From Bacteroidales bacterium (GTDB taxonomy: Bacteria; Bacteroidota; Bacteroidia; Bacteroidales; NBLH01), in the NCBI GenBank assembly GCA_050296515.1, contig JBNKRJ010000051.1, positions 51,192-115,191 on the forward strand: a stretch of 64,000 bases of DNA, in the 5' to 3' direction. Each line of letters begins with the position of its first letter. Positions within the stretch are counted from its first letter, which is position 1. Below, in pieces: positions 23,858 to 64,000 of this stretch. Below the pieces are notes generated by a model. That model ran no database searches and had not been told where the DNA came from. It saw only the letters and a program-made list of their open reading frames with translations. A program made the translations under genes and the position numbers.

Positions 23858-25117
23858 ATGTCAACAAGATTTATAGTTTTATTAGTCATATTAGTACTCA
23901 TTGATATTTATGTTTTCAGAACCTTTGTAAACCAGTTCTCAGGATTCTCAAAACTATTAAAATACACGATTTATGGTATTTACTGGATGGTTCCATTATT
24001 CCTTGTTTCTTTCACCATTTATGGCATCAACTCAAATGGTCCCAGTCATATTCGCGAAAGCAGAGCAATACTCTATGCAATAGCATGCCTGGTATTGTTT
24101 TATATACCTAAACTACTCGTTTTAGTTTTTCAAGGTGTTGAAGATTTCAGTAAAATAGCTGCCTGGATTACCAAAAAACTTAGCCAACCAGAAAGCAGCA
24201 TCTATTCAGGTGCTGAAAAAATTTCAAGATCAGTTTTTATTGGTAGAATAGGACTAATAATCGCAAGTATTCCTTTTGCCTCAATTCTTTATGGTATTGT
24301 AAAGGGTAGATTTAATTTTACAGTTAATAAAAAAAAATTGTACTTTGATAATTTACCTGAAAAATTTGATGGTTTTAAGATAGCTCAATTCTCTGATTTT
24401 CATGCAGGTAGTTTAATTGGTCAACAAGAGAATTTCAAAAAAGCCATTCAACTTATAAACAGCCAACAAGCAGATATAATTGTTTTTACCGGTGACATGG
24501 TCAATAGCAGGGCAGATGAATTAGATGATTGGTTAAGCGTTTTATCAGAGTTAAAGGCAAAACTAGGAAAATTCTCCATTTTAGGAAATCATGACTATGG
24601 TGACTATTACCAATGGGATACGCAAGATGAAAAGGTTGCCAACCTGCAAAAACTCAAAGACTATCATAAGCAATTAGGATTCAAGCTGATGCTAAATGAA
24701 AATCATATATTTGAAAAAGATGATGAAAAAATTGCATTATTAGGAGTTGAGAATTGGGGTAAAAAGCCCTTTCCCCAGCTTGGCAGGCTTGATGAAGCAA
24801 TGAAAAACACCGACGATATCCCTTTTAAGGTTCTATTATCGCACGATCCCAGCCACTGGGACGAAGAAGTTCTTGGCAAAACTGATGTAGATTTAACACT
24901 TTCCGGGCATACTCATGGAATGCAACTTGCAATTAATGTTGCCGGATACAGCTGGAGTCCTGTAAGTATGCGTTACCCACGGTGGAAAGGATTGTATACC
25001 GAAAATAATCAACATTTATACGTAAACATTGGTCTGGGATATATAGGTTTTCCAGGCCGTGTTGGAACAAATCCCGAAATCACCGTAATTGAACTAAAAA
25101 AGAATAATGTCGCATAA
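23858..25117 (+). CDS. Membrane-anchored metallophosphoesterase (YkuE/YaeI-like)
   Basis: N-terminal TMs; SDFH, TGDMVN, LGNHDYG, SHDP, LSGHTHG. Confidence 0.9.
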   Translation: MSTRFIVLLVILVLIDIYVFRTFVNQFSGFSKLLKYTIYGIYWMVPLFLVSFTIYGINSNGPSHIRESRAILYAIACLVLFYIPKLLVLVFQGVEDFSKIAAWITKKLSQPESSIYSGAEKISRSVFIGRIGLIIASIPFASILYGIVKGRFNFTVNKKKLYFDNLPEKFDGFKIAQFSDFHAGSLIGQQENFKKAIQLINSQQADIIVFTGDMVNSRADELDDWLSVLSELKAKLGKFSILGNHDYGDYYQWDTQDEKVANLQKLKDYHKQLGFKLMLNENHIFEKDDEKIALLGVENWGKKPFPQLGRLDEAMKNTDDIPFKVLLSHDPSHWDEEVLGKTDVDLTLSGHTHGMQLAINVAGYSWSPVSMRYPRWKGLYTENNQHLYVNIGLGYIGFPGRVGTNPEITVIELKKNNVA

Positions 25118-49700: not shown

Positions 49701-50028
49701 AAGAAATGACTTTACAGTAGGTAATTGCAGTTCTTTAAAATCAGCTATGGCAGGAACAACTGAGACTGAAAATTTGGATAATGAATCATTTTCAGCCAAA
49801 AATTTGGTCCTTTATCCAAACCCTGCTAAAAAAGAGTTAAATATCAATGGAATTGAAGATGTTAAAGAGCTGGTTATTTACACTTTATCCGGCAGTAAAA
49901 TGCTTGAGAAAAAAGTAAAAGAAACAAACAAAACATCTATTAACATTGAGCATTTAAGTAAAGGAATTTACATATTAAAAGCAGTTGGTAAAAACTCAGT
50001 AAAAACTACACTTTTTGTTAAAGAATAG
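46744..50028 (+). CDS. T9SS-secreted multimodular GH16 beta-1,3-glucanase (GH16 - CBM-like - Big_2 - ConA/DUF1349-like - CBM6 - CBM56-like - CTD)
   Basis: Signal peptide; WPAAW and GEIDMME catalytic motif; VTGVTVSP (Big_2); IQAEDY...GWIDEGDW (CBM6); LYPNPAK...LSKGIYIL (T9SS type A CTD). Confidence 0.88.
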   Translation: METKTLQKILKQALLLVILSTNLTILKAQVGNVIWEENFNTLNTDIWTPNVGDGCAIGLCGWGNAELEYYNTDNVYIADIPGESGNKALVLEARNQTMGSASFTSGKVDTEGKLSIQYGLIEIRMKVPNLETGLWPAAWLLGTVNSGWPAKGEIDMMEMGHNLTERIRQGYPSSTVNNYVGANAIWQNSADGGVASIAWDVDYDLPYVSNTPLNDRFVTYRLYWEPTQMRYTVVDNGVEYDLYTNPFPLDSEGDTKTFQRPFYMLLNLAVGGNFTDAANASQVTAPMPAKMYIDYVRVSEWNGYGNVEFDDSQLTAESGVFGVLTDNTPANNELDFGNDAAIYVWGGTMQEGSTLAYEGSNVVAWETTTPNSWFGGGIVSLFGKNMSNFVDEGKLKFKIKIPADVSFKIGVTDNYTNEKYVDFPAGQTKYGLVRNGDWGQVEIPIADFSGLIAFQDMNYLFAIVSDAANLPSSTFQLAIDDIIWDDGNETTIIPVTGVTVSPTSKTLKVDENQQLTATVLPSNASNKNISWSTSNASIASVSSTGLVTAQSVGRATITVTTEDGNFTATSLITVEADNSLPSPWETGDIGSVGAVGSATYSNGTFTLEGSGADIWGTSDEFRYVYQPIDGDVVITAKVNSLSNTDAWAKTGVMIRENLNNNSKHAMTVVTAGNGTAFQRREATGGSSAHNTGPSTSAPYWVKLERSGDTFTSSVSSDGTNWSTIGSSSLTMSATVYVGLATTSHNDGTICTAQISDVAINTSNVNYAAIPGTIQAEDYTDMFGIQTEATTDTGGGLNVGWIDEGDWLDFAVDVSSTGNYLLKLRGATPNGPDVCTILIDNNTVSSIDIDNTEGWQKWQTFETTVSLTEGTHTLRLSAATTGFNINRVEFTLNNQSNNCSVVGATGDYTAEISNDASNPTITFVPKRSGVGSSVCILYYGTSAAGDLPGYNVTPNVPYEISAQNGEHIYFYYTYSLPEGGENNTAGTRNDFTVGNCSSLKSAMAGTTETENLDNESFSAKNLVLYPNPAKKELNINGIEDVKELVIYTLSGSKMLEKKVKETNKTSINIEHLSKGIYILKAVGKNSVKTTLFVKE

Positions 50029-50039
50029 TCTCTAAAAAT

Positions 50040-50061
50040 CTGGAAGCCTTTGGGCTTCCAG
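50040..50061 (+). terminator. Hairpin downstream of the GH16 gene
   Basis: CTGGAAGCC-TTTG-GGCTTCCAG. Confidence 0.6.
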
Positions 50062-50184
50062 CTTCTCAATTAACCTGTTGGAATGTTAAGAATCATTAAG
50101 TCCCGGTTAAAAAAACATAATGAATATTCGAAAGTGTGACAACAATAAATTTTTTATGTTATATTCGCACAAAATCTTGAACAA

Positions 50185-50661
50185 CTGAAGAAGTATTTTA
50201 AAAATAAGATAATGCAACCACTGCTTGGCTTTCTAAGCCAGGGAATGTCGCCTCACAAATTAGCACTTACTTTAGCATTTGGAATTGTTTTTGGAATTAT
50301 TCCATTTTTTGGAATAAGCACCTATCTTCTTATTGTAATTGCAATCATATTTAAGCTGAACATTCCTGCAATTCAACTAGTTAACTATGCAGCTTATGTT
50401 ATCCAGATAACATTATTTGTGCCTTTTTTAAAGTCTGGCCAATATTTATTTGGCGGACACGAACTTCCTTTTGATATAAGCAATATAATTGAAATGTTAC
50501 AAGAGCACTTCTGGAAAACAATAGAAGCCATTTGGGAAATTAATTTAATGGGCATAGCAATGTGGGCAATTATTGCTATACCCGGAGGGCTTGGGATTTA
50601 CTATTTATCAAGACCATTTTTTGTAAAACAACAACTTAAGCTTCAACCAAAACTTGCCTAA
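50185..50661 (+). CDS. DUF2062 membrane protein (paralog 2; ATG 50212, or CTG 50185 by homology)
   Basis: SQGMSPHKLAL...KLNIPAIQ...VPFLK; aligns end to end with paralog 1. Confidence 0.78.
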   Translation: MKKYFKNKIMQPLLGFLSQGMSPHKLALTLAFGIVFGIIPFFGISTYLLIVIAIIFKLNIPAIQLVNYAAYVIQITLFVPFLKSGQYLFGGHELPFDISNIIEMLQEHFWKTIEAIWEINLMGIAMWAIIAIPGGLGIYYLSRPFFVKQQLKLQPKLA

Positions 50662-50857
50662 TAAAACTTATAATAAGCAGCATTTAAAACTATAACACCT
50701 GCATCTTTTCCAAAGTGCCCTTAATTTTCAAACAACATAATTTTACAGCAGGATAAAATATTCATCACCTTGCTTATTTTCATATAATTTAATACTTTAG
50801 TTATTCTAGGCTTTAGTCAAAACTAACTCAACTATTTTAACTTTTTGGGAAACAAAT

Positions 50858-52990
50858 ATGCACAAAACAAATAAAAACCCAGGCATTTATTTTAGGATGC
50901 TTTCAATGGGTTTAGCTGCTACAATAATATTTTTTCTTTCTTTTTCAGCAGTATTCTTTTTTAAAAATAAGCAGGAACAATTATTGTTTCAATCAAATCA
51001 AGAACAATTCAAACATGAGATAAACTCATTATTTACACTCAATAGTTCTATGATTGATAAAGTAATCTATGATTACACCTTTTGGGATGAATTTATTGAA
51101 GAAATTAAGATAAGAAATCCGGAATGGTTTAAGAATAACATCACTACTATTTTACAAGCCTTTAGCGTTGATTATGTAAGCGTATATGATACAACATTTA
51201 GTCTGATACATGAAGCCTCCTCTGACTCTCTTAGAAAAATTAAAAAGATAATTCCGCAAAATGCATTACCTCAACTTATGGAATCAAGATTCACTCATTT
51301 TTTCACATTAATTGACAATGAACTATTTGAAATAAGTGGAGGCAGCATACATCCGGATAATGACCCTACGCATACTTTAACACGGCCAGGTGGATACCTG
51401 TTTATTGCAAAAAAATGGGATCATGACTTTATAAATCAATTGTCAGCATTAAGCGGTGCAGAAGTTCAACTACTCCAAGTTTCTGATTCTGTTAAAAATG
51501 ACAAACACTATTCTATTACTACAGAACAAATACTATTAGGATGGAACAAGCTGCCTGCAGTCAAGATATTGTATGAAAAAGAGGATGAAACCATAAAGCT
51601 ATATAAAGAAATATCAAGGTATATGCTTTTCATTATTGTATGTTCCTTAACTATATTTTGGTTTTTATTTCATTTAACGACAAGAAAATGGATTAGCAGA
51701 CCACTAAAGCTTGTATCTGAAATATTAAAAACAGAAAAGGTAAAATTAATTAATGATTTGCAAAAGGCGCCAGGCGAATTTAAAAATATTGGACAACTTT
51801 TTCATGCTTACGTAAAACAAAAACATGAATTGCAAATTGCAAAGGAAAAAGCAGAAGAAAGCGAACGCCTAAAATCAGCCTTTTTAGCAAATATGAGTCA
51901 TGAAATTCGCACGCCAATGAATGGCATTCTTGGATTTGCAGAGTTATTGAAATCATCTGAAATATTGGGTACCGCTGAAACCAATTATATTAATCTAATT
52001 GAAAAAAGTGGTAACCGCTTGTTGAACATTATTAATGACTTAATTGATTTGTCAAAACTTGAGTCAGGACAAATGAATGTAACCTATTCGGATACAGATG
52101 TGAATGAAATTACCCGGTTTATACATTCGTTTTTTAAACCCGAAGCAGAAGGCCGTGGATTAAAAATAAACTTCAACAATACGCTTTTAACAAAAGAAGC
52201 AATAATAAAAACAGATAAAGAGAAACTATACGCAATACTTACAAACCTTGTAAAAAATGCTATAAAGTATAGTAAAGAAGGAACAATAGATTTTGGTTAC
52301 GTAAAGAAAGAAGAATTTTTAGAGTTCTATGTAAAAGATAACGGGATTGGAATTGCAAAGGAAAAACATCAAACAGTATTCGAGCGATTCTCACAAATAG
52401 ACACTTCATTATCAAGCAATTATGATGGAGCTGGGCTAGGACTGGCGATTACCAAAGCCTATGTTATTTTATTAGGAGGTGAGATATACCTCGAAAGCGA
52501 ATCGGGCAAGGGAACTCAATTTTATTTTACTATTCCCTACAACCCTGTTTATGTTGAAATAACTAAAATTGAGGAAGATTTAATCTCATTGAGTGAATTG
52601 CCCTTAAAGAAAAAGCTAAAAATATTAATTGTGGAAGATGAAGAAACCTCCTATTTACTTTTGAGTATTCTTCTTAAAGACATCAGTAAAGAAATACTTT
52701 ATGCAAAAACAGGGTTCGAAGCCATCGAAGTCTGCAGTGAGAATCTTGATATTGATTTAATACTACTAGATATAAAAATGCCTTTAATGCATGGTTATGC
52801 AGCTGCAAAACAGATAAGAAAATTTAATAAAGATGTAATAATTATTGCGCAAACCGCCTATGCGTTGTCAGGAGACAGGGAAAAAGCCCTTGAAGCCGGA
52901 TGCAATGCTCATATTCCAAAACCCATCAACCAGGAAAAATTGATTCAAATGATTTATAAATATGTAAATGAAAAAGAGAGGTTGCTATAG
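50858..52990 (+). CDS. Hybrid sensor histidine kinase (CHASE4 - HisKA - HATPase - REC)
   Basis: DYTFWDE (CHASE4); [44 protein letters not shown]. Confidence 0.92.
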
Positions 52991-53061
52991 CAACTAATTA
53001 ATCAACACTATATCTCATAAGAACTCAAAAGAAAACTACTACAATTAGTTTTATAAATTAA

Positions 53062-53652
53062 TTACATTTTCTGCAAAAACAGTTTTAAATCATCAAACGT
53101 AGTAGATTCAAAGTTCCAATGTCCTTTCAATGCACCTAAACCAAGACTGTTCGCAATAGGGTTCTGCAACGCTAAAAAGCATTGTATTCTTGATTTTGAT
53201 TCATTTTTAGGTTTTTCATTGTTGCAATTAATGAAATCATCAATACAACGATTCACAGGTAGATCGGTAATTGAATTCAGACACAAGTCCTCCAACATGC
53301 CTGAATCTTTATTATTTGGCATTACAAATATGCCAATTTTTGGATTTGTATCTGAAAAATCATTTATAATTTTTGGAACCGGAAGATTTGATTTTTTCAG
53401 AGACATAGCAATACTGTCAAATGCAGATTGAGCAGGATTATCATCAGCATCTCTTATCAACCCAAAAGAGACTACATTTCTAAAACCAGTAATGTTAGGA
53501 ATAGCTTTTATTTTTAAGTCAAATTTCCCTTTTCCACCAAAGTCAAGAAGTTGAACATCATCGATCTGAAGCTTTCTTAATAAGGCTTGAAAAAACGAAA
53601 TTTCATCTTTCCCTTCAACCGCTAGGATTTTAGTTTTATCTATAATTTCCAT
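53062..53652 (-). CDS. DUF3226 (TOPRIM-like) protein
   Basis: LAVEGKDE, FGGKG, IRDAD, GIFVMP...GMLEDL. Confidence 0.75.
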   Translation of the reverse strand: MEIIDKTKILAVEGKDEISFFQALLRKLQIDDVQLLDFGGKGKFDLKIKAIPNITGFRNVVSFGLIRDADDNPAQSAFDSIAMSLKKSNLPVPKIINDFSDTNPKIGIFVMPNNKDSGMLEDLCLNSITDLPVNRCIDDFINCNNEKPKNESKSRIQCFLALQNPIANSLGLGALKGHWNFESTTFDDLKLFLQKM

Positions 53653-53654
53653 AA

Positions 53655-54722
53655 CTACCTAATTTCCCAGTTACTTTCAAGTGACAAGTTTAATACTTCA
53701 GAATCAAATTTATATGAGGTAAATTCACCTTCATTGTTTTCTATCCTAAAAAGCCTGATGTCATCTTTATCAGTCTGTTTATTTTGGTAGACTGCATTTA
53801 AGGATTTGGCGCATTCCAGAGAATGAGTTGTAACAAAGATCTGAACATCATAAATCCTGGCAGTTTCAATTATTGATTCCCATAATTTGGGAAGAAAAGA
53901 ATAATGAAATCCATCTTCAATTTCATCAATCAAAACCATACCACCTTCGGCGTCGGCAATTGTCACCAAAATATAGAGTAGTTTTTTTATACCATCTCCC
54001 ATTATTTGAATAGGAGATAATTTATCAAATCCAATATCAATATAAATCATATTATTAGCACCCAACGATACATCCACTACTCTACTATCCAGTATTCTTA
54101 AAGATTTGATAAAACTATCTAATTTCTTTTTTATAATAACTCTATCAATTCGGTTATAAATATCACCATGATCGGTTGCATGAAACAAAAAAATCCCTCT
54201 TAGTTTTTCAATGTAATCTTTTGTTGGAGAATAAGTTATACCCTTAGATGTATATTGTAATAATGCTTTTTGAAATTTATCTTTTGACAATTTATTGGTC
54301 TTTACAGAAAAATTAAACTCTATACCATTAACTAATCTTTTATGAATAGTTGAACTTGAATCAAAACTTGATGTATCACCGCTTTTCTTAACAGATGATT
54401 CCTCGTAGATAGGTTTTATTACTAACCTTCGAAACTGATTGTTTTTTACAAATTCAGTATTGATTTCAATTTGATTATTATAGTCTTGTTTATTAAAGAT
54501 ATATTGAAAATCATCATTTTCCACATGTAAAAGTCCTCTAAATCTATCAATGTTTGTAACCAAATTTGGGTTTGAAACCCCTAATGATAAAAAAATAGCT
54601 TCAAGCAGTGAGGTCTTTCCACTATTATTTTTACCAACAAATAAATTCACTTCCTTAAAATCATCTACTTCAATATTAGTAAAGCCACGAAAATTTGTAA
54701 TATTAATGCGATATAGTTTCAC
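53655..54722 (-). CDS. AAA_15/AAA_21 ABC-type ATPase
   Basis: ITNFRGF, VGKNNSGKTS (Walker A), MGDG signature, LIDEIEDGFH (Walker B/D-loop), VTTHS. Confidence 0.88.
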   Translation of the reverse strand: MKLYRINITNFRGFTNIEVDDFKEVNLFVGKNNSGKTSLLEAIFLSLGVSNPNLVTNIDRFRGLLHVENDDFQYIFNKQDYNNQIEINTEFVKNNQFRRLVIKPIYEESSVKKSGDTSSFDSSSTIHKRLVNGIEFNFSVKTNKLSKDKFQKALLQYTSKGITYSPTKDYIEKLRGIFLFHATDHGDIYNRIDRVIIKKKLDSFIKSLRILDSRVVDVSLGANNMIYIDIGFDKLSPIQIMGDGIKKLLYILVTIADAEGGMVLIDEIEDGFHYSFLPKLWESIIETARIYDVQIFVTTHSLECAKSLNAVYQNKQTDKDDIRLFRIENNEGEFTSYKFDSEVLNLSLESNWEIR

Positions 54723-54930
54723 TTGTTTAAATTTTAGTTAAGTAATTGATATTTATTCACTTCTCTTAAACCATTTATATGGAGTTCATGAGCTTGCTTC
54801 GCAAGGTTAAACATATTCTTTTGTAGAGCGATTATTCGCTTCGCTTATGAGAGCACTTCGTTAAGTTAAGTTTCTTTATAAACCCCGAAGGGCTCAGCGT
54901 AAACTAATCCCTCTATGAGGCTTTCATTTG
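54717..54930 (-). repeat. Leader repeat copy A (inverted partner of 61539-61694)
   Basis: Reverse complement of 54717-54832 aligns to 61578-61694 at about 99/117 columns (manual count), with a 35-bp identical core; 54906-54930 aligns to 61539-61563 at 21/25. Confidence 0.9.
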
Positions 54931-55085
54931 TTTATTCTTTTGTGCTTAACCTTTTAAACAGAGCTTAAATTTTATGCGTAAAAATATCTAAATCAATTAA
55001 ACAAGCAAAATATGATTATCAATTTAGTAATAAACAATTGCAAAAGCATGAATTATAAAAGATGATGAAAAACTGCTAAACCAAC

Positions 55086-58000
55086 CTATTTCTCCACTTT
55101 CACCCTGATTCCCTCAGAATGAGAAGTAAACTCAGGTGCATACATGCATTGAATAGTTGTCACCCCATTTGAAAAATCACCTTTGTGAGTAACACGCAAT
55201 GGATATTCAAATACATAGGTTCCTTTTGGTAATGCTTCCATAAAAAAGTTGGTAGCAGCATCTTTTGTACTCTCATAATATCCAAGACCATCCTGCCACT
55301 TGTAAGTTGAGATTACGTTAATTGGCTCAAAACCTGAAGCCCGCATATCTTTCATATGAATGTATTCCATTCTTCGGTCAACTCTTAACTCAATTCGTAC
55401 AATGACTTTATCACCAATTTTTAGTTCATTATTATCTGAAATAGGTTCTATTACTTTGCCCCTTTCAGTTAGTTTCTCAATAAACAATTGCTTTTTAAGC
55501 TTTAATGGCGTTTCATGTGGAGTAATTTTATCCAGTTGCTCAAAATACTGCCAGTAAACTGCTCCCCAGGACACACCTTCGTCTGATTTGGTGACAGTAA
55601 CATTTCCCATTTCAGGCTTAATCTCTCCCCTGCCCCATGATGTTTTGAAATATCCGGTTCCTGCTTCTACTTTTACATCATCCATTTTTTTAGGATCAAT
55701 AATTTGATCACCCATTTTTATTTCAACTAACTTATCGCTTGCCAGCCAATCGCTTCCTCGCAGTAATAATGAATAGATTGCTTCTGTGGTTGCTTTTGTC
55801 GTCTTCCAATCCTGGGTCTGTTTTTGCTTTAACAACCACACTTTCAAATCATTAACAGCTGTCTGGTCATTAGCCACTTCGTCAAATACTTCAATCATTA
55901 GTGCCTGAGTTTCAATAGGTGCCTGGTACCAGTACCATCCACCAACATTGTCAATCCAGTACATGCCCATTTCTTCGTTGCTGGTTGAGTTTTCTTTCAA
56001 GGATTTCACAATATCAGCAGGAACAATTTTGTTTTCGTATCGGTGTAATCCAAGAGCAATCATACCTTGCATGTACTTGCTTTGCGACAACCAGTACTTT
56101 TCAGCCTGACTTTTAAAATAATCAAAAGCTTCTTTACTTCTTGCAGGTATTTGTATATCTGTAAAATAACTTCTGCCATAAAGATATTGAATAGCATCAT
56201 AACTTAAATGATTTTCCTCCAGCTCCTCTTTGGTATAATTTTTCTTTAGCCAATCGTAATCTTCTTTGATACGAACATCCAAATAACCAATAGCATTTTG
56301 CAGCATGTTCCATGTTTTTTGATCGGTTCGAACGGTTTTCACACCTAATTTATCCAAATGTCCCATTCCTGTAACAATGTGCTGGGTAATGTATCTGCTT
56401 TCTGGCATTCCTTTAAACCATGGCCATCCACCATTTGACTTTTGGGCTTTCTGCACCTTTTTTAATGCACGACCCAATTCATCGCCCATTCTGTTTAAAT
56501 CAAACAATAACCCAACATGGTTTTTTCGCTCTGTTTCGTTCTTACCATTTAATACCCAGGGAGTTTCTTCAAGCAATACTGCTTTTAATTCCTGGTTTTT
56601 CTCTAAATTAGAAAGCAAAGCTTCCGATCCTTTGGTATTTTTCCATGAATCAAAAACCTGTTTTATTTTCGGACTTGAATTGGCAATGTGCGATGCAATA
56701 CTGTTTGCATAAAAACGACTGAAAGTCTGCTCGGTACATTCATACGGATATTCCATCAAATAAGGCAGTGCCTGAACAGCATACCAAGCCGGATTTGAAG
56801 TGAACTCAAGCGTCAGCTTCTGATGCCGTAAAGTACTTGATTTACCGGAATTTATCAGTTTCTCAAACTTGTATGTTTTGGTTTGATTTCCCCTTACTGG
56901 TAATGGCATTGATTCGGTAACCAGCATTCGGTTAGTTAACACAGGCAATGGTTTTTGCTCACCATCAGAAAAGTCACCTGCTTTGGCGACCACCTTGTAC
57001 ATAATTGCATCAACTCCTTCAGGAATTTCAAGATTCCAGCTAACCAAACTGTTTTTCCCTGCTTTTACCTCAAAGTCCCTGGTCTCTTGCTCATTCTTTG
57101 CAAAAATTGTACTGACAGGTTTCATGCTTATCGCATCAAACAACTCAAGTTTTACTTTTCCAGTTAAGTTTTTATCTGAAATATTACTGATTTTTACAGG
57201 GAAAGTAATCTTATCGTTCTCGCGGAAAAAACGAGGCTCATTGGGTAACAGCATTAAATCTTTCTGCGTAACCAATTCATTGGTAATTGAGCCATATTGC
57301 AAATCTTTTGTAGTTGCAAAACCCATCATTTTCCATTTAGTAAGTGACTCAGGTACAGTGAATTCCACAATTACTTCACCTTCTTTGTTAGTCCTCAAAT
57401 GAGGATAGAAAAATGCCGTTTCATTAAAATTGGTTCTGACTTTCACATTTGAAAAATCTTCCTCACTTTTACCTCCTGCCAAATCGCCTCCTTGTTGTTT
57501 TAAATCACTGATGTTCGTTGTTGTAATATCCTCTTCCCGCAATTCCTTTTCGGAGGTTGGCGCATCGTCATCAAATGAGTCGGCCTTAGCCTCCATCATT
57601 GGTGCAGGTACAGCTTTTCCAACTTTTCTTTTGAGTGAAAGCCTATTATTTCCTCTTACTCTGCCATAACCCGTTACAACAACTTCATCCAAACCACCAT
57701 AATAATTATAATAACCAGGATAATAGTTAAATTCAAACCAGTTAAAGTAATCATAGTATAGATTCGCCACATATACAGGCATGTCCAGATTCTTTTTAAT
57801 CAATGTTGAATTCAAATAACTAAATGTTCCTGTATTCCAGGTTCTTGCCGTGTAGTAGGAATTGTAAACATTAAAATCCCAATAATTGGTCCTGAATTGA
57901 TCTAGTGAAGCATCATAGAGGGTCGCAAGCATTTCTGCTGCCACTTTATCACCTTTGTGCCCTTTAATTTTTAGTCTCCATTGCTCTTTTTCACCTGGAT

Positions 58001-61000
58001 ACAACTTATCACGGAAGGTTTCAAATTCAATATCCAGATATTTATTAGAATAAGGTACATATACCACTGAGTTGTGATTGTAGTACCTATTATCCTTTAC
58101 AAAAACGAAATGAACAGAAAAATTACCACGATGCTTTTCCTCAACCGGAATTTTAATCAGCTTTTGCTCATTATTTAAAGTAAGATATTGAGATAAAACT
58201 ATTTGGTCCTTGTGTTCTACCTGATACAAAACGGTTACATTTTTATTGCTTGTACCTATTAAAAACTCAGCCTCCTCTCCAGGCTCACAATAAGTCTTAA
58301 CTGCTGAAAATAAATCAATTACCTTATAGGGCATCTCATTTCCTTCATCCGAAAAAACATTAAAGAAATGTTTGTTGCTTACCTTGTTACCAAATGCATC
58401 GGTTGAAGAGATTTCAGCCACATACCTTCCGGTTTCAAATCCTTTTACAACTGAAAAATCAAGTTTCTTTTGCTCTTTTGTATTAAAAACAGTCATAAAT
58501 ACCTGCTTGTCCTTCTCCAATTGCAGGTTTTCCGATTCATTATCGTAAATATTACCCGGAAACTTCTCGTTCCATTCCTCTTTTGTAAAAATGTGCTTAT
58601 CAGGTCTTGTCCAATGCCTTGCTCTTATGGCTTCGGGCAAATCCTTTAGTTTATAAATCTTTATCTCGCCACTTGCCGGAATATACTCACTATTAAGATT
58701 ATAAGTCCCTATTTGTATTAGCTTATCATCTTCATCATCATATCTTTTATCATTTTTATTAATCAATCCCGAAAGAGGCAAACTTACCTGCAATGCCCTG
58801 TACCCAACATTCAGATTTTTAGAAGTGCTTTGTGTTTCCCCATTAATATCGGTTACATCGACCTTAATCTGGTAATTAAAAGATAAGAACTCATTTTCCT
58901 CATAGGATAAATCAGGTAAAGCTTTGAATTTCAATTTATAATGCCCATTATCATCCGTCTGCAACTCACCATTTTTAATTTCAACCGGAACACTATTAAA
59001 AGCCCAATACCACCAGCCACGCCACTGTGGAGTCCGGATAATTCGATATTTCACATTTGCTTCACTAACAGCAGCACCTGAATAACTCGTTGCTTTTCCT
59101 TCTACTTCCACTTCATCATTTAACAAATAATTTCCTTTAAACGGAAGCATCTCTACCTCAAACTTTGGTCGCTTGTATTCCTCTACAGAAATATATTTTG
59201 AGCCATTGTAGCACTCCAACAAGAAGTTTCCGTTTAACAACCCGGTTGGGATATCAAATGTTCCACTAAAAGTACCATATTCATTTGTTTTAAGGTTTAG
59301 TTCTGCAACTTTCTGATGGTTCACATCTTTCAAAACAACAGTTACACTATACCCGGTTTCAATTTTATTGGTTTCACCATCGGATCTGATACTAATTCCC
59401 TTAAAATAAATGGTTTGACCAGGTCGATAAATGGCCCTGTCTGTGAAAAAAGTAGTATAAACATTTGAATACTTTTCGTGTGGCTGGTAGTAGATATAGG
59501 AACCATTTGCTGTTGTTAGGTAGTCACCAGCATATGAAAAGTTTACATTCCAGCTTTGAGAGTCTTTGCCCTTGACTGCCTTAATAACAAAACTACCATC
59601 CTGAACAGTAGTATAAACATTTCCCATTTTTTCAACATACCTACGCTTTGAATAACTGTACTTAGAATACCATGATTGACAAGTCACTCCCTGCATTGGC
59701 ATACCTGTAGTTCTGTTTAGCACCACATAGCGGAAAGAGCCATCGTATTGCTGTTGTTTGATGTAACTGATATTTGATACCGTAAAGGCCTGAAAGGCCG
59801 ACATTGCCTCATTGTAATCAAATCCTTCATTATCAGAAACTAATAAAACATAAAACCCGACCGGAAGTTGATTAAGTATGACTTCTACTGAATGCTCATT
59901 AAAGTCCTTATCAACAGGCAAGTCATAATTTAAAGTATAAACCTGGTCAGACGATTTTTTAATTTTGTCGTACAACTCTTCATAACTATATTTCCCATAT
60001 AGTTTTTCATACTTTGCACGACTCATTTTAGCCGCCCTGATATAAACCTTATTAATGTTTCGATAATTTATCTTTGCCGAAAACTTTGCATCCGGCATCA
60101 CAATACTTTCGGTATTAAAACTTAAGTTATGTGTTTCGATGGTGATAATTAGCTGTTTGCAATGTCCTGCTGCGTTTGTTTTTGGAAACTTTTCAATTAC
60201 TTTATTACAAATCTTATGAGCCTTAACACGGTAGTTTTTGTATTGATCTGTGGCCTTTGATAATGGATCGTACTTGCCTGATAAATTATAATAATATTGC
60301 GCGATGGCCAGTGAAACCTCACCTGAGAAAGGATTCGAGTTGTATTTATTTTCAAGCTTTGTCAATGCTTCAAGATACAGACCTTCTTTGTTATTATGAA
60401 CTGAATGAGCATATGCAAACTTTAGCCTTTTTAAATCTACATCAATTAAAGCTTCAACTTCTTTTGCATGGTTCAGCCTGAATTTTAGTAAATCCTGGAA
60501 AATCAGCTGAGCATGAAAATGTAACGATAAAGTATCTGCAGTTTTAATATCTTTTGTAATAAATTTATTTGCATCTGAAAAGTAAAAGTCTTCCCTTAAC
60601 TCAAAATTATCAGCAGGCTTTGTCAAAGCAATTTCTGTATTTGAGAAAAAATCAACTGCCTTATGCGCCAAAAAATCATACAAAGTAGGCCGCAAAGTCT
60701 TTGGTTTTGTTCCGGAATAAATCAGTTCTTTATACTTTTCAGTAGGAATCTTCTGAAGCTCCTCTTTGTTCGTTAAAGACTGATTATAGTTAATAATCAT
60801 CTCATTAACAAGATGATCCAGCGTCCAGGTTTCCATGTCTGCATTATCGAAATTTACCGTATTACTCCGATCCTGAAATTTGTATCGGTTGTTTTGATAA
60901 TACCACCAGTACATGTCAGCAAGCATGGAGTGCATAATTGCCTTATCTGGGAAAACAGCTTCTTTTACAGCTGAATCCAACTCATAGCAAAGCTTTTCAA

Positions 61001-61253
61001 AGGCTTTTTCCTCGTTTGAATTTTTATATTTTAATCGAAAAATAAATGATTTAATGACTTGCTCAGAGTTTTTATCTGATTTAGCCTTTGCTAAGATTTC
61101 ATTAACCACCTCAAGTGCAGATTTTGGAAGCCCTTTTTTCTCAAGACTATCCACCTCGGTCCATTTCGACTGGTAAAACTTCATGTTTTGCGCATTTAGA
61201 TTAGAAATAAATAAAAAAGTTAGAAAGAATAAGATTACGATTTTTGATTTCAT
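55086..61253 (-). CDS. Bacterial alpha-2-macroglobulin family protein
   Basis: FTDRAIYRPGQ, VEEYKRPKFEV, VRTNFNETAFF.P, PESLTKW, thioester YPYECTEQ, MYAPEF. Confidence 0.93.
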   Translation of the reverse strand: MKSKIVILFFLTFLFISNLNAQNMKFYQSKWTEVDSLEKKGLPKSALEVVNEILAKAKSDKNSEQVIKSFIFRLKYKNSNEEKAFEKLCYELDSAVKEAVFPDKAIMHSMLADMYWWYYQNNRYKFQDRSNTVNFDNADMETWTLDHLVNEMIINYNQSLTNKEELQKIPTEKYKELIYSGTKPKTLRPTLYDFLAHKAVDFFSNTEIALTKPADNFELREDFYFSDANKFITKDIKTADTLSLHFHAQLIFQDLLKFRLNHAKEVEALIDVDLKRLKFAYAHSVHNNKEGLYLEALTKLENKYNSNPFSGEVSLAIAQYYYNLSGKYDPLSKATDQYKNYRVKAHKICNKVIEKFPKTNAAGHCKQLIITIETHNLSFNTESIVMPDAKFSAKINYRNINKVYIRAAKMSRAKYEKLYGKYSYEELYDKIKKSSDQVYTLNYDLPVDKDFNEHSVEVILNQLPVGFYVLLVSDNEGFDYNEAMSAFQAFTVSNISYIKQQQYDGSFRYVVLNRTTGMPMQGVTCQSWYSKYSYSKRRYVEKMGNVYTTVQDGSFVIKAVKGKDSQSWNVNFSYAGDYLTTANGSYIYYQPHEKYSNVYTTFFTDRAIYRPGQTIYFKGISIRSDGETNKIETGYSVTVVLKDVNHQKVAELNLKTNEYGTFSGTFDIPTGLLNGNFLLECYNGSKYISVEEYKRPKFEVEMLPFKGNYLLNDEVEVEGKATSYSGAAVSEANVKYRIIRTPQWRGWWYWAFNSVPVEIKNGELQTDDNGHYKLKFKALPDLSYEENEFLSFNYQIKVDVTDINGETQSTSKNLNVGYRALQVSLPLSGLINKNDKRYDDEDDKLIQIGTYNLNSEYIPASGEIKIYKLKDLPEAIRARHWTRPDKHIFTKEEWNEKFPGNIYDNESENLQLEKDKQVFMTVFNTKEQKKLDFSVVKGFETGRYVAEISSTDAFGNKVSNKHFFNVFSDEGNEMPYKVIDLFSAVKTYCEPGEEAEFLIGTSNKNVTVLYQVEHKDQIVLSQYLTLNNEQKLIKIPVEEKHRGNFSVHFVFVKDNRYYNHNSVVYVPYSNKYLDIEFETFRDKLYPGEKEQWRLKIKGHKGDKVAAEMLATLYDASLDQFRTNYWDFNVYNSYYTARTWNTGTFSYLNSTLIKKNLDMPVYVANLYYDYFNWFEFNYYPGYYNYYGGLDEVVVTGYGRVRGNNRLSLKRKVGKAVPAPMMEAKADSFDDDAPTSEKELREEDITTTNISDLKQQGGDLAGGKSEEDFSNVKVRTNFNETAFFYPHLRTNKEGEVIVEFTVPESLTKWKMMGFATTKDLQYGSITNELVTQKDLMLLPNEPRFFRENDKITFPVKISNISDKNLTGKVKLELFDAISMKPVSTIFAKNEQETRDFEVKAGKNSLVSWNLEIPEGVDAIMYKVVAKAGDFSDGEQKPLPVLTNRMLVTESMPLPVRGNQTKTYKFEKLINSGKSSTLRHQKLTLEFTSNPAWYAVQALPYLMEYPYECTEQTFSRFYANSIASHIANSSPKIKQVFDSWKNTKGSEALLSNLEKNQELKAVLLEETPWVLNGKNETERKNHVGLLFDLNRMGDELGRALKKVQKAQKSNGGWPWFKGMPESRYITQHIVTGMGHLDKLGVKTVRTDQKTWNMLQNAIGYLDVRIKEDYDWLKKNYTKEELEENHLSYDAIQYLYGRSYFTDIQIPARSKEAFDYFKSQAEKYWLSQSKYMQGMIALGLHRYENKIVPADIVKSLKENSTSNEEMGMYWIDNVGGWYWYQAPIETQALMIEVFDEVANDQTAVNDLKVWLLKQKQTQDWKTTKATTEAIYSLLLRGSDWLASDKLVEIKMGDQIIDPKKMDDVKVEAGTGYFKTSWGRGEIKPEMGNVTVTKSDEGVSWGAVYWQYFEQLDKITPHETPLKLKKQLFIEKLTERGKVIEPISDNNELKIGDKVIVRIELRVDRRMEYIHMKDMRASGFEPINVISTYKWQDGLGYYESTKDAATNFFMEALPKGTYVFEYPLRVTHKGDFSNGVTTIQCMYAPEFTSHSEGIRVKVEK

Positions 61254-61538
61254 GACGAATAAATTAAGTGCATGATAATTAGCAATGTTAATTTCAATAG
61301 TTAAACTTCATTCAGTTTTGATGATATTCATTTCGAGTCATTGGTCAATAGCCTTTAATACAGGAATCCAATATCAATGACTAGTGACTAATAACCAATT
61401 TCTATTATTGAAGATACGAAAAAAAAGTAATTCCATAATTTTACCCCAAACTGAAAAAACATTTTGCCTATGAATTACAATTCTCTATTTTTGAATTAAA
61501 TCCGGTACTCCTCACTAATATTTACATTTAATAATTAT

Positions 61539-61694
61539 CAAATGAGACCCTCGGAGAGGGATTTATTAAGAATTTTCATCGCTATACAAAAGAACATACT
61601 TAACCTTGCAGTGCAAGCTCATGAATTCTTTAGAAATAATTAAAATGAAGATGAATAAATATCAATTACTTAACTAAAATTTAAACCAGTGAAA
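61539..61694 (+). repeat. Leader repeat copy B (inverted partner of 54717-54930)
   Basis: Identical core TGAATAAATATCAATTACTTAACTAAAATTTAAAC at 61652-61686; ends on GTGAAA start of the downstream gene. Confidence 0.9.
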
Positions 61695-64000
61695 TCAGTA
61701 AAATTCCTTCTATTTTCAATGTTGGTTATACTTATATCTTGTAGCCAAAAAAAACACCCCATGTATCAATCCAAGCAATTTAGTATAACAGATAGTACTG
61801 TAGTACAAGGCAACTATATTGCCAGGGCAATATCCTCAACAGAAATTACCTCCAACTATCAAAGTCCTGAAAGCGATAAAATATCTGCTTTAATGGAGTT
61901 TAAATTCAGCATTAATGGCAAAGACAACGAAAAGCCATTTGCAATGAATCACAAGTATCTTTTTAACACCGAAGAGGCTGCAAAAAACGAAATTACCTTG
62001 TCATTTGGAAGTAATGAATACATGCAAGACATTGATTCTGAAGGAAAAACACTACGTCCTAATACAAAAATGACAGTAAAACTTGATTTTAATAAGGTTC
62101 TAAAAGACTTTGAAGAGAAAGGGTACTTTGAAACAATTTCTGGTGAAAAAGTATATAAAGATGACTTTAAAGGATTATTCATTGCCGGAAATACGGCACC
62201 ACTTAGCTGGGATTTTGAAAACCTTCATAATAAAGGACTTGAACTGAAAGATGAAGACGGTGATGGAATTTATGAAATTGAGCTCATTATGAATCCTTAT
62301 AATCCGGATAATTTTACTTCGGCACACTGGAAACTGGCAAATGACATCAGTAAATATCCACAGTTAAACTCGGGCAAAGTGATTATTGATGCTTTGTATA
62401 ATCTGGGTTTGGATGAAACCGTAATGAACATTGAAGATGATGGGACATTCCGTACAGGTAAAGAATGGCCGGGAGTTTGGACGCGTGATGTGAGCTACAG
62501 TGTATTTCTGAGCCTGGGAGTTTTGGAACCTGAAATTTGCAAAACCAGCCTGATGAGAAAAGTAAGTAATGGAAGAATCATTCAGGATACTGGTACAGGT
62601 GGCGCATGGCCGGTTTCTTCCGACAGAACCACCTGGGTAATAGCAGCTTACGAATTGTATAAAATTACAGGTGACGAAGAGTGGCTTAACACCATCTATC
62701 CCATTATTGAAAAATCATTACAAACTGATTTAAAAACCATTGTTGATCCTAAAACAGGTTTAATGAGAGGGGAATCATCTTTTTTAGATTGGCGCAAACA
62801 GACTTATCCAAAATGGATGAACAGCGTGGATATTTATGAATCGCTTTGCCTTGGAACCAATGCTGTTCATTACCGGGCTTACGAAATTATGGCTGAGATT
62901 GCTCAATTAAAAGGCAATGATCCAACCCAATATAGCAAAGTTGCTGAAACTATTAAGCAGGCAATCAATAAACATTTATGGCAGGAGGACAAAGGTTATT
63001 ATGGACAGTTTATTTATGGAAGAACCTATAAATCATTGTCCCCGAAATCTGAAACGCTGGGGGAAGCCCTTTGCATATTGTTCGGTATCGCCGATGATGA
63101 AAAGAGCCGAAAAGTGATTGAAAATACACCCATGGTACCATTTGGTGCAGCATGTGTTTATCCTCAAATTCCCCAAATTCCACCTTATCATAACAATGGT
63201 ATCTGGCCCTTTGTTCAGGCATTCTGGAACATTTCAGCTGCCAAACAATTAAATTACAGCGCATTGGAGCATGGATTAGCATCCTTTTACCGACCTGCAG
63301 CCCTGTTTTTAACCAATAAGGAAAACTTTGTAGCCGAAAATGGTGATTTACAGGGAACTGAAATTAATTCTGACCGACAACTATGGTCCGTGGCAGCCAA
63401 TATGGCAATGGTTTACAGGGTGTTGCTGGGCATGAATTTCCGGAAAGATGGAATTGTATTAAAACCAGTTGTTCCGGAAGGTTATGGAGGTAAAATAAAG
63501 GTAACCAACTTTAAATACAGAAATGCAACACTTGATTTTGAAATAAATGGATTTGGAAATAAAATCAAAACCTTCACAATTGACGGTGAAGAACAAAAAG
63601 ATGCATTTGTCCCGGGTAATCTGACTGGTAATCATACGCTTGTTATCGAACTTAACTCTTCGATTAAAAACAAAGGAGAATTCAAACTGGTAGAGAATAA
63701 ATTTGCACCTGCCACTCCCATTGTTAAAGAAGATAAAGAAAGCGACAAAATAGCAATTGGTTGGGATAATATCTTGGAAATACAAAAGTACACAATCTTA
63801 AAAAATGGAGAAGAAGTGGATAATATTGCAAATGAAAAAGATAAAACCCGTTTCTTTTTTACCATTGATGCTCTATCTGCATTAGAAGAATACCAGGTAA
63901 TTGCAATTGATAAAAATAATTCATTTTTAAGCAAACCAATTGTAAAAGCTAAAAGCTATTATATTCAAGCAGAAGAATTTGCTCCTGCCTCAAAGCTTCC
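61689..64000 (+). CDS. Lipoprotein glycoside hydrolase, (alpha/alpha)6 MGH1-like/amylo-alpha-1,6-glucosidase-like (3' end beyond window)
   Basis: Not in ORF track (no stop in window). GTG start, MKSVKFLLFSMLVILISC lipobox; DEDGDGIYE; GKEWPGVWTRDVSYS; QDTGTGGAWPVSSDR; same frame spot-checked at 62460 and 63900. Confidence 0.8.
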   Translation, partial: MKSVKFLLFSMLVILISCSQKKHPMYQSKQFSITDSTVVQGNYIARAISSTEITSNYQSPESDKISALMEFKFSINGKDNEKPFAMNHKYLFNTEEAAKNEITLSFGSNEYMQDIDSEGKTLRPNTKMTVKLDFNKVLKDFEEKGYFETISGEKVYKDDFKGLFIAGNTAPLSWDFENLHNKGLELKDEDGDGIYEIELIMNPYNPDNFTSAHWKLANDISKYPQLNSGKVIIDALYNLGLDETVMNIEDDGTFRTGKEWPGVWTRDVSYSVFLSLGVLEPEICKTSLMRKVSNGRIIQDTGTGGAWPVSSDRTTWVIAAYELYKITGDEEWLNTIYPIIEKSLQTDLKTIVDPKTGLMRGESSFLDWRKQTYPKWMNSVDIYESLCLGTNAVHYRAYEIMAEIAQLKGNDPTQYSKVAETIKQAINKHLWQEDKGYYGQFIYGRTYKSLSPKSETLGEALCILFGIADDEKSRKVIENTPMVPFGAACVYPQIPQIPPYHNNGIWPFVQAFWNISAAKQLNYSALEHGLASFYRPAALFLTNKENFVAENGDLQGTEINSDRQLWSVAANMAMVYRVLLGMNFRKDGIVLKPVVPEGYGGKIKVTNFKYRNATLDFEINGFGNKIKTFTIDGEEQKDAFVPGNLTGNHTLVIELNSSIKNKGEFKLVENKFAPATPIVKEDKESDKIAIGWDNILEIQKYTILKNGEEVDNIANEKDKTRFFFTIDALSALEEYQVIAIDKNNSFLSKPIVKAKSYYIQAEEFAPASKL

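Follow-up and report, generated by a model that had tools for sequence, protein, structure and literature searches.

Start-codon-fused mini elements in a Bacteroidales genome share their ends with an IS110-family insertion sequence

The window analyzed here, a 64,000-nucleotide stretch of a Bacteroidales genome, holds two copies (A and B) of a short repeat, each ending on the start codon of a different gene. We consider it highly probable that both copies belong to a family of approximately 120 gene-less mini elements (minis) that share their ends with an insertion sequence (IS) of the IS110 family, and that would have been moved in trans by the RNA-guided recombinase of that IS into the ATG AAA with which genes open. 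We infer that the minis are non-autonomous IS110 derivatives that replace start codons; their mobilization is likewise deduced from sequence.

The window pair and its genome-wide family

By BLASTN, positions 54832-54717 of the minus strand aligned with positions 61578-61694 of the plus strand at 99 of 117 columns (84.6%, E 7.5e-30), in agreement with the manual count of about 99/117 given in the initial annotation of this DNA. The alignment also contained the 35-bp identical core reported there, together with the second block matching at 21 of 25 positions and the two hairpins in which stems are kept and loops changed, and similarity did cease in both copies right after GTG AAA. Both GTG codons were, as had been claimed, the starts of listed open reading frames (ORFs), one encoding an AAA_15/AAA_21 ATPase and the other a six-hairpin glycosidase, and domain matches upheld the identity of the alpha-2-macroglobulin gene that the copies bracket, which is a bystander. 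What had been described as two blocks are parts of one continuous element, and the gap between them consists of two optional hairpin modules present in copy A only. The features of the pair are as follows.

53655..54722, minus strand: AAA ATPase gene (AAA_15/AAA_21), 355 aa, starting on the element's GTG (ORF list, domain match)
54717..54921, minus strand: mini element copy A, 205 bp, running from the first base past the left ATGAAA through the closing GTGAAA
54717..54755, minus strand: conserved right end of copy A, with A-rich leader, arm, 8-nt match to the putative donor guide and replacement GTG AAA
54807..54824, minus strand: internal site of copy A, with a 7-nt match to the putative fourth guide of the IS110 RNA, a 4-nt spacer and an inverted-repeat arm
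54834..54905, minus strand: two optional hairpin modules not found in copy B, ends approximate (alignment, module combinations across 87 copies)
54913..54927, minus strand: stranded original start, a mini-ORF (M-K-A-S-stop) made of ATG AAA and the element's first bases
55086..61253, minus strand: alpha-2-macroglobulin gene, bystander between two independent insertions (ORF list, domain match, relatives)
61542..61547, plus strand: left junction of copy B, ATGAGA, one change from ATGAAA (sequence)
61548..61694, plus strand: mini element copy B, 147 bp (sequence, alignment)
61586..61603, plus strand: internal site of copy B, guide match intact and arm decayed (alignment)
61689..64000, plus strand: glycoside hydrolase gene, 895 aa within the contig, starting on the element's GTG (ORF list, domain match)

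Copy A was recent-looking, with 92-97% identity to many other mini copies, and the arm of its internal site mirrors the arm preceding its right end. Copy B was more decayed, with a mutated internal arm and ~85% identity to A. Each copy represents a separate insertion, and the two genes concerned point in opposite directions. A neighboring protein carries a Por secretion tail, which fits a Bacteroidota host.

We searched the 7.07-Mb host genome (G000) for further copies. The initial annotation had proposed looking for many copies abutting start codons, and this was borne out, in that the 39-nt right-end motif occurred 120 times genome-wide, many of these on start codons, rather than just twice. 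Both ends were present in 87 copies of 91-244 bp, 85 of which were distinct in sequence; length varied by optional hairpin modules on a ~92-bp core, with 13 copies consisting of the core only. When these modules were counted outside elements, the palindromic strand and the ends of contigs confounded the result. Terminal inverted repeats, the classical MITE criterion, were absent, the mini ends not being complementary.

Throughout the family, copies were placed after an ATGAAA-type site and terminated in GTGAAA. The downstream sequence was long enough for analysis at 103 non-tandem right ends; 55 of these opened an in-frame ORF of at least 80 aa, as compared with 3/103 and 5/103 in the other frames and with 5-19% of background GTGAAA/ATGAAA hexamers. 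The remaining 48 opened no long ORF, 23 of them having a sense ORF within 300 nt. The new start codon was GTG in 103 of the 120 right ends and was preceded by C at -3 in 113/120; an A at this position is described as favoring initiation in Flavobacterium (PMC6847099). Genes downstream of minis were unrelated to each other. On the left side, the flank read ATGAA in 56 of 63 independent mini cases and had a G before the ATG in 29/63 versus 11% in the background, an excess that is predicted by the target guide of the resident IS described below. The old ATG was left on a short stub, most commonly MKPS (28/87) or MKPSFRVPLKL (22/87). Tandem junctions were also found, with 16 right ends directly followed by another copy, and 16 copies sat behind the end of a second mini family in the same genome.

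A resident IS110-family element and its predicted RNA guides

The initial annotation had pointed out that no recombinase is encoded in the window; an IS110 gene was found outside it. Profile searches of the genome for tyrosine recombinases, Y1 transposases, IS110 and reverse transcriptases, followed by inspection of the flanks, yielded 14 matches to PF00589, six to PF01797 and a single PF02371 gene. The IS110 gene alone was bounded by the ends of the mini (G000:C17:31437-32970, 1534 bp), and the left end, an internal site and the right end were common to the minis and this 1.5-kb IS. Its product was assigned to NF033542, IS110 (RNA-guided transposase), at 268 bits against a cut-off of 140, and matched IS621 (PDB 8wt6) with an E of 1e-13. 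The resident IS is inserted behind a mini of the second family, where it supplies GTG AAA to a 208-aa ORF. It is single-copy, and a frameshift at its 5' end immediately precedes the first catalytic Asp; the same frameshift was present in the contig of the likely source sequencing run. A second, truncated IS left end was located on contig C133. Beyond the short end motifs the mini interior could not be aligned to the resident IS, the left end of a homologue (L181) being closer. Given that the resident copy is single and frameshifted, the minis may have been spread by a related enzyme that has since been lost or is missing from the assembly.

The same IS layout was seen at 79 genome loci and 80 metagenome loci with 51-89% identity, the closest homologues being mostly in Bacteroidales or Prolixibacteraceae records. 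One of these (L052) is intact, with 413 aa, and another locus (L054) holds a tandem IS dimer. Among full-length homologues with enough flank, 25/45 supplied an in-frame start, and a subgroup targeted AAGAAA, with the guide matching accordingly. No circle junction was detected in the contigs of 4 DNA runs, and no junction-formed -33/-7 promoter was found for the resident IS.

The IS110 gene is followed by a predicted RNA of ~125-170 nt in which stems enclose two internal loops. Its structure was drawn by hand on the basis of a single fold and then tested: across 27 sequences, the four helices were 88.5% paired and showed 50 two-sided changes (0/500 shuffles; 29-39% in slid controls). Unguided consensus folding with RNAalifold returned only 3 pairs. 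Rfam gave only sub-threshold chance matches on the IS locus. In loop 1, the 3' strand equals the left flank (target-left; GATGAAA at the resident element) and a T-run in the 5' strand complements the bases after the core (target-right, the A-rich codon 3). In loop 2, the 3' strand equals the right end of the element (AAGTGAAA) and the 5' strand, the fourth guide, equals the internal site ACAAAAG.

RNAs were parsed at 63 of 80 loci in each of two homologue sets (genome and independent metagenome), 17/80 having no parsable RNA, and guide matches were compared with permutations, which ignore relatedness and are inflated by it; guide changes recurred in several subgroups. In the genome set, the target guide matched the left flank over 7.7 versus 6.0 nt permuted (n = 48, 0/2000) and the fourth guide matched the internal site over 7.2 versus 5.1 nt (n = 50); right ends in this set were called using the guide itself, which is circular. 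The corresponding values in the metagenome set were 7.44 versus 6.0 (n = 48, 0/1000) and 7.62 versus 5.31 (n = 45, 0/1000), and the donor guide matched a guide-free right-end call over 8.0 versus 5.72 nt (n = 39, 0/1000). Two loci with 5-nt matches only (L055, L117) were left out of the right-end tests. The right target guide gave a weaker signal than the left, matching 1.80 versus 1.54 permuted of 3 positions (83 loci, 0/5000) and 16 of 28 non-A positions. Cross controls were near background overall, with that of the donor guide against the left flank slightly raised (6.02 versus 5.76, 7/1000). Over ~160 homologous loci, three of the four predicted guides behave like those of bridge RNAs, changing together with target-left, target-right and the right end of the element, respectively, and the co-variation of the right target guide would place the core at the last two A of ATGAAA.

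In the mechanism that we propose, the recombinase-RNA complex would excise the mini, or copy it out, as a circle, which would then be recombined at the AA core in codon 2. As seen at the insertions themselves, the former ATG AAA ends up in a short stub upstream, and the gene receives an A-rich leader with GTG AAA in frame. Because the regenerated start would keep the gene translatable, insertions would be tolerated and accumulate; because the new right end is itself a target, the tandem stacks would also be explained.

The antisense match of the fourth guide to the left end beside the core was at background (4.43 versus 4.5 permuted), i.e., no match of the IS621 type was present. Its site in the IS, 7-10 nt in the same sense, lies ~20-40 nt inside the left end; behind it come a short spacer and an arm that mirrors the one preceding the right end. 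These arms are 7 nt long, the left one being internal, with a mean of 5.6 identical positions versus 4.5 permuted. In the minis, a search allowing 4 mismatches found the internal site in 70/87, at 37-136 nt from the left end, with ACAAAAG conserved at 87-100% per position; this retention and high conservation suggest that the site is likely required in cis. Its placement could reflect a double-stranded donor that is looped, or a single strand that folds back on itself by way of the arms; for another IS110, transfer of a single strand has been reported (bioRxiv 10.1101/2025.10.25.684509). When the bottom strand of the junction was folded back, arm-arm pairing was part of the minimum-energy fold in 28/61 minis and 14/40 IS, counts that come with no shuffle control, and the arm mismatches recurring across elements fit protein recognition equally well. 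We tentatively suggest, while leaning slightly towards doubt, that these elements represent a Bacteroidota branch of bridge recombinases with a split donor, in which one guide reads the right end and the other a site tens to more than 100 bases inside the left end, the two being joined by looping or by strand fold-back through the arms. Such an arrangement would let 90-bp RNA-less minis with variable hairpin inserts spread to more than 100 start codons and rewrite host translation starts.

Empty sites in relatives and alternative origins

Of 41 genomes searched, 11 had a match to the element, the one strong case being G008, which belongs to the same genus. In G008, the orthologue of the copy-B hydrolase starts with a native ATGAAA and has no element, its leader aligning poorly over ~59 nt, and in G002 the homologue of the ATPase starts at the same codon, an ATG, again with no element. 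Reciprocal empty sites were provided by L022 and L023, which are filled in G008 and have clean empty orthologues in the host genome. A screen of 11 loci from relatives yielded a right end at 9, of which two were these clean cases, four had no orthologue or a partial match only, and three were too diverged or ambiguous. On these genome comparisons, the repeat would arise by insertion and not by duplication. G032, a member of another family, carries a different mini with the same layout, and all 8 copies retrieved were free of stops over 20 codons. The left-end and internal motifs of this mini and of the second G000 mini family resemble those of other clades of the same IS110 group. No PF02371 match was found in G032 (95% complete), though this genome carries a second mini family.

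The minis might be mobile and start-targeted but moved by a Y1/HUH transposase or a tyrosine recombinase, with their likeness to the IS110 ends reflecting a shared target. The PF00589 and PF01797 matches in the genome, the frameshift of the resident IS110, and the hairpin-rich nature of minis that lack terminal inverted repeats agree with such a mover. We consider it improbable, however, since the left end, internal site and arm common to the minis and IS110 are not target-derived and match the predicted IS110 RNA guides, since the second G000 family and the G032 mini carry motifs of other clades of the same IS110 group, and since none of the other 25 loci inspected had mini ends within 260-300 nt per side (by eye). 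Tyrosine recombinase, Y1 and reverse-transcriptase loci were rejected as the mover, mini ends being found at none.

The initial annotation had proposed a portable leader that expresses captured genes. Part of this stood, in that many copies abut starts and empty sites exist; the element is, however, one that lands on existing genes rather than a cassette shown to express captured ones. TAnnTTTG is the Bacteroidota -7 consensus. A promoter-like TAACCTTG, one mismatch from it, was present in 55/87 minis and lacking in 31/87, and the exact element occurred in neither window copy. In the left ends of parent IS, the exact TAnnTTTG was found just past the internal site in 15/41 (1.1 expected), where it is probably the transposase promoter; TAACCTTG in the minis may be a relic of this -7 element, and since 55/87 keep it, some minis may act as weak putative promoters. 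These motifs, the termination of minis on start codons and the fold of copy A, which was better than shuffles (z -2.4), are what one would expect of a scattered cassette of promoter and 5'UTR that is retained, in the manner of Neisseria REP2, for the joint regulation of downstream genes. That origin is nevertheless even less probable than another mover, given the minis without the motif, the nearly half of copies that open no gene, the unrelated downstream genes and the orthologues in relatives that have no element; a promoter-like trait can be a side effect of insertion rather than its origin.

A conserved cis-regulatory RNA, also proposed initially, found no support, as Rfam returned only sub-threshold chance matches on window positions 50000-64000, copy B folded no better than shuffles (z 0.08) and the downstream genes are unrelated. 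We rejected a riboswitch or other cis-regulatory RNA identity, having found neither conserved structure nor related downstream genes. That the pair are recombination sites inverting the 6.7-kb macroglobulin segment is the least likely reading: the copies are inverted and could recombine homologously, and IS110 enzymes are described as able to invert DNA when programmed (PMC11208160), but the macroglobulin gene has the same orientation relative to its hydrolase and DUF2062-like neighbors in G008, which has no elements there, no strand-switch joint was seen in contigs of 4 runs of one study (a weak check, since rare variants are lost from contigs), inverted pairs within 10 kb numbered just 2 among the 120 ends, and copy B is decayed and no more than 85% like copy A.

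Relation to known systems

A literature search of incomplete coverage returned no paper on this mini family, on IS110 minis at Bacteroidota start codons, on a distal donor guide or on Prevotella start-codon elements, and ISfinder and supplementary tables may list members. Within that coverage, no precedent was found for start-codon replacement combined with a distal donor guide and more than 100 minis that lack the RNA. Already known were IS110 elements aimed at translation signals, one small non-autonomous IS110 and start-fused repeats. By exchanging ATG for GTG at dozens of genes, altering their leaders and leaving stubs upstream, such an RNA-guided parasite could shift expression across the genome, and the minis define a natural 91-bp donor for genome engineering.

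In IS621/IS110, as described in PMC11208160 and PMC13626964, a DEDD recombinase works with an RNA whose two loops have strands matching target and donor around a dinucleotide core, and the right donor guide of IS621 pairs with the top strand beside the core (PMC11208160). The present IS resembles IS621 in its DEDD recombinase, two-loop RNA and short sub-terminal inverted repeats. It differs in having its RNA 3' of the gene, in the order of the guides, top strand before bottom strand, and in being aimed at a start codon. Its fourth guide also departs from IS621: in place of the core-adjacent bases it matches, in the same sense, a site ~20-40 nt within the left end of the IS (37-136 nt in minis), which points to a donor-recognition mode unlike that of IS621. 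The IS1111-group seekRNA elements, as characterized in PMC11187229, likewise have a non-coding region downstream of tnp, a top-strand complement preceding the bottom-strand match and no true target duplication. Their sTIR, however, measure 11-13 bp and lie 7 and 3 bp from the ends, whereas the arms here are imperfect, 6-8 bp long and, on the left, far inside.

MITEPpu9/ssr9 of ISPpu9 is a non-autonomous element with IS110-like ends that is mobilized in trans and found in tandem and next to its parent (PMC12288879). The minis are similar in being non-autonomous, with shared IS110 ends, no transposase, many copies, tandem arrangements and empty sites, and presumably also in being moved in trans. 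Unlike MITEPpu9, for which 8 copies in REP sites and an sRNA are described (PMC12288879), they comprise ~120 copies at start codons and carry no bridge RNA. IS900 of Mycobacterium avium subsp. paratuberculosis is also an IS110-family element aimed at translation initiation signals, through the motif CATG-N6-TCTCCTT, i.e., an ATG and, on the other strand, a purine-rich RBS with a spacer between them (PMC8141618). Bacteroidota are described as a phylum without Shine-Dalgarno sequences (PMC6847099), and the mini family, which acts in this phylum, inserts behind the second codon and, unlike IS900, supplies a new start codon in place of the old one. Finally, Neisseria REP2 repeats are 120-150 bp long, lack terminal inverted repeats, contain hairpins and end on start codons fused to unrelated genes (PMC3184786), all in common with the short hairpin repeats described here. 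REP2 was described as carrying a promoter and RBS, with its mechanism of spread left open, whereas here a candidate mover is identified by sequence; the minis would thereby offer both a mover and a readable targeting code for REP2-like start-codon-fused repeats of unexplained spread (PMC3184786).

Probable accessory genes and unrelated repeats

The ATPase gene of the window that starts on the GTG of a mini element belongs to a gene pair:

Window 53062-54722, minus strand: AAA_15/AAA_21 ATPase and DUF3226 genes

This pair had no match in the same-genus genome G008 and was present at a different location in the relative's genome G002; it is therefore probably accessory, and a defence role would be a guess. 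Elsewhere in the genome from which the window comes (G000) are two recombinase genes:

C43:2137-2601 and C73:375-860: tyrosine recombinase genes, each with an ORF directly after

By eye, the DNA of these ORFs suggests what we take to be an IS91-like zinc-finger transposase. Across the whole of G000, at least five further families of short repeats (about 107-163 bp) reached high copy number, the commonest word of each having 24-56 copies. Several of these families are palindromic, and their ends show them to be unrelated to the main mini family.

Additional mini families

Three further features concern mini elements:

G000, e.g. C17:31314-31436, also C25, C82 and C130: second mini family (~130 bp)
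G032 (genome of another taxonomic family), loci L007-L014: third mini family (~205 bp), same architecture as the G000 minis
G000, C5 near 24100-24250: left end of a mini joined to a further left end in inverted orientation, the two making up a long palindrome

A strict search of G000 recovered 31 right ends of the second family, with 12 of 16 free right ends in frame. In its left-end, internal and right-end motifs this family resembles L067, L178 and L228, which form a different clade within the same IS110 group; the G000 assembly yielded no transposase cognate to it. No PF02371 match was found in the G032 genome, although it carries the third family.

Tandem copies and altered targets of the full IS

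At L054, the full IS was repeated head-to-tail as a dimer or trimer, its copies joined at a junction identical to that expected of a circle. In the IS110 subgroup comprising L066, L071, L073, L074, L077 and L174, guides and flanks contained AAGAAA or AGGAAA, not ATGAAA. The subgroup represents a case of natural reprogramming away from start codons.
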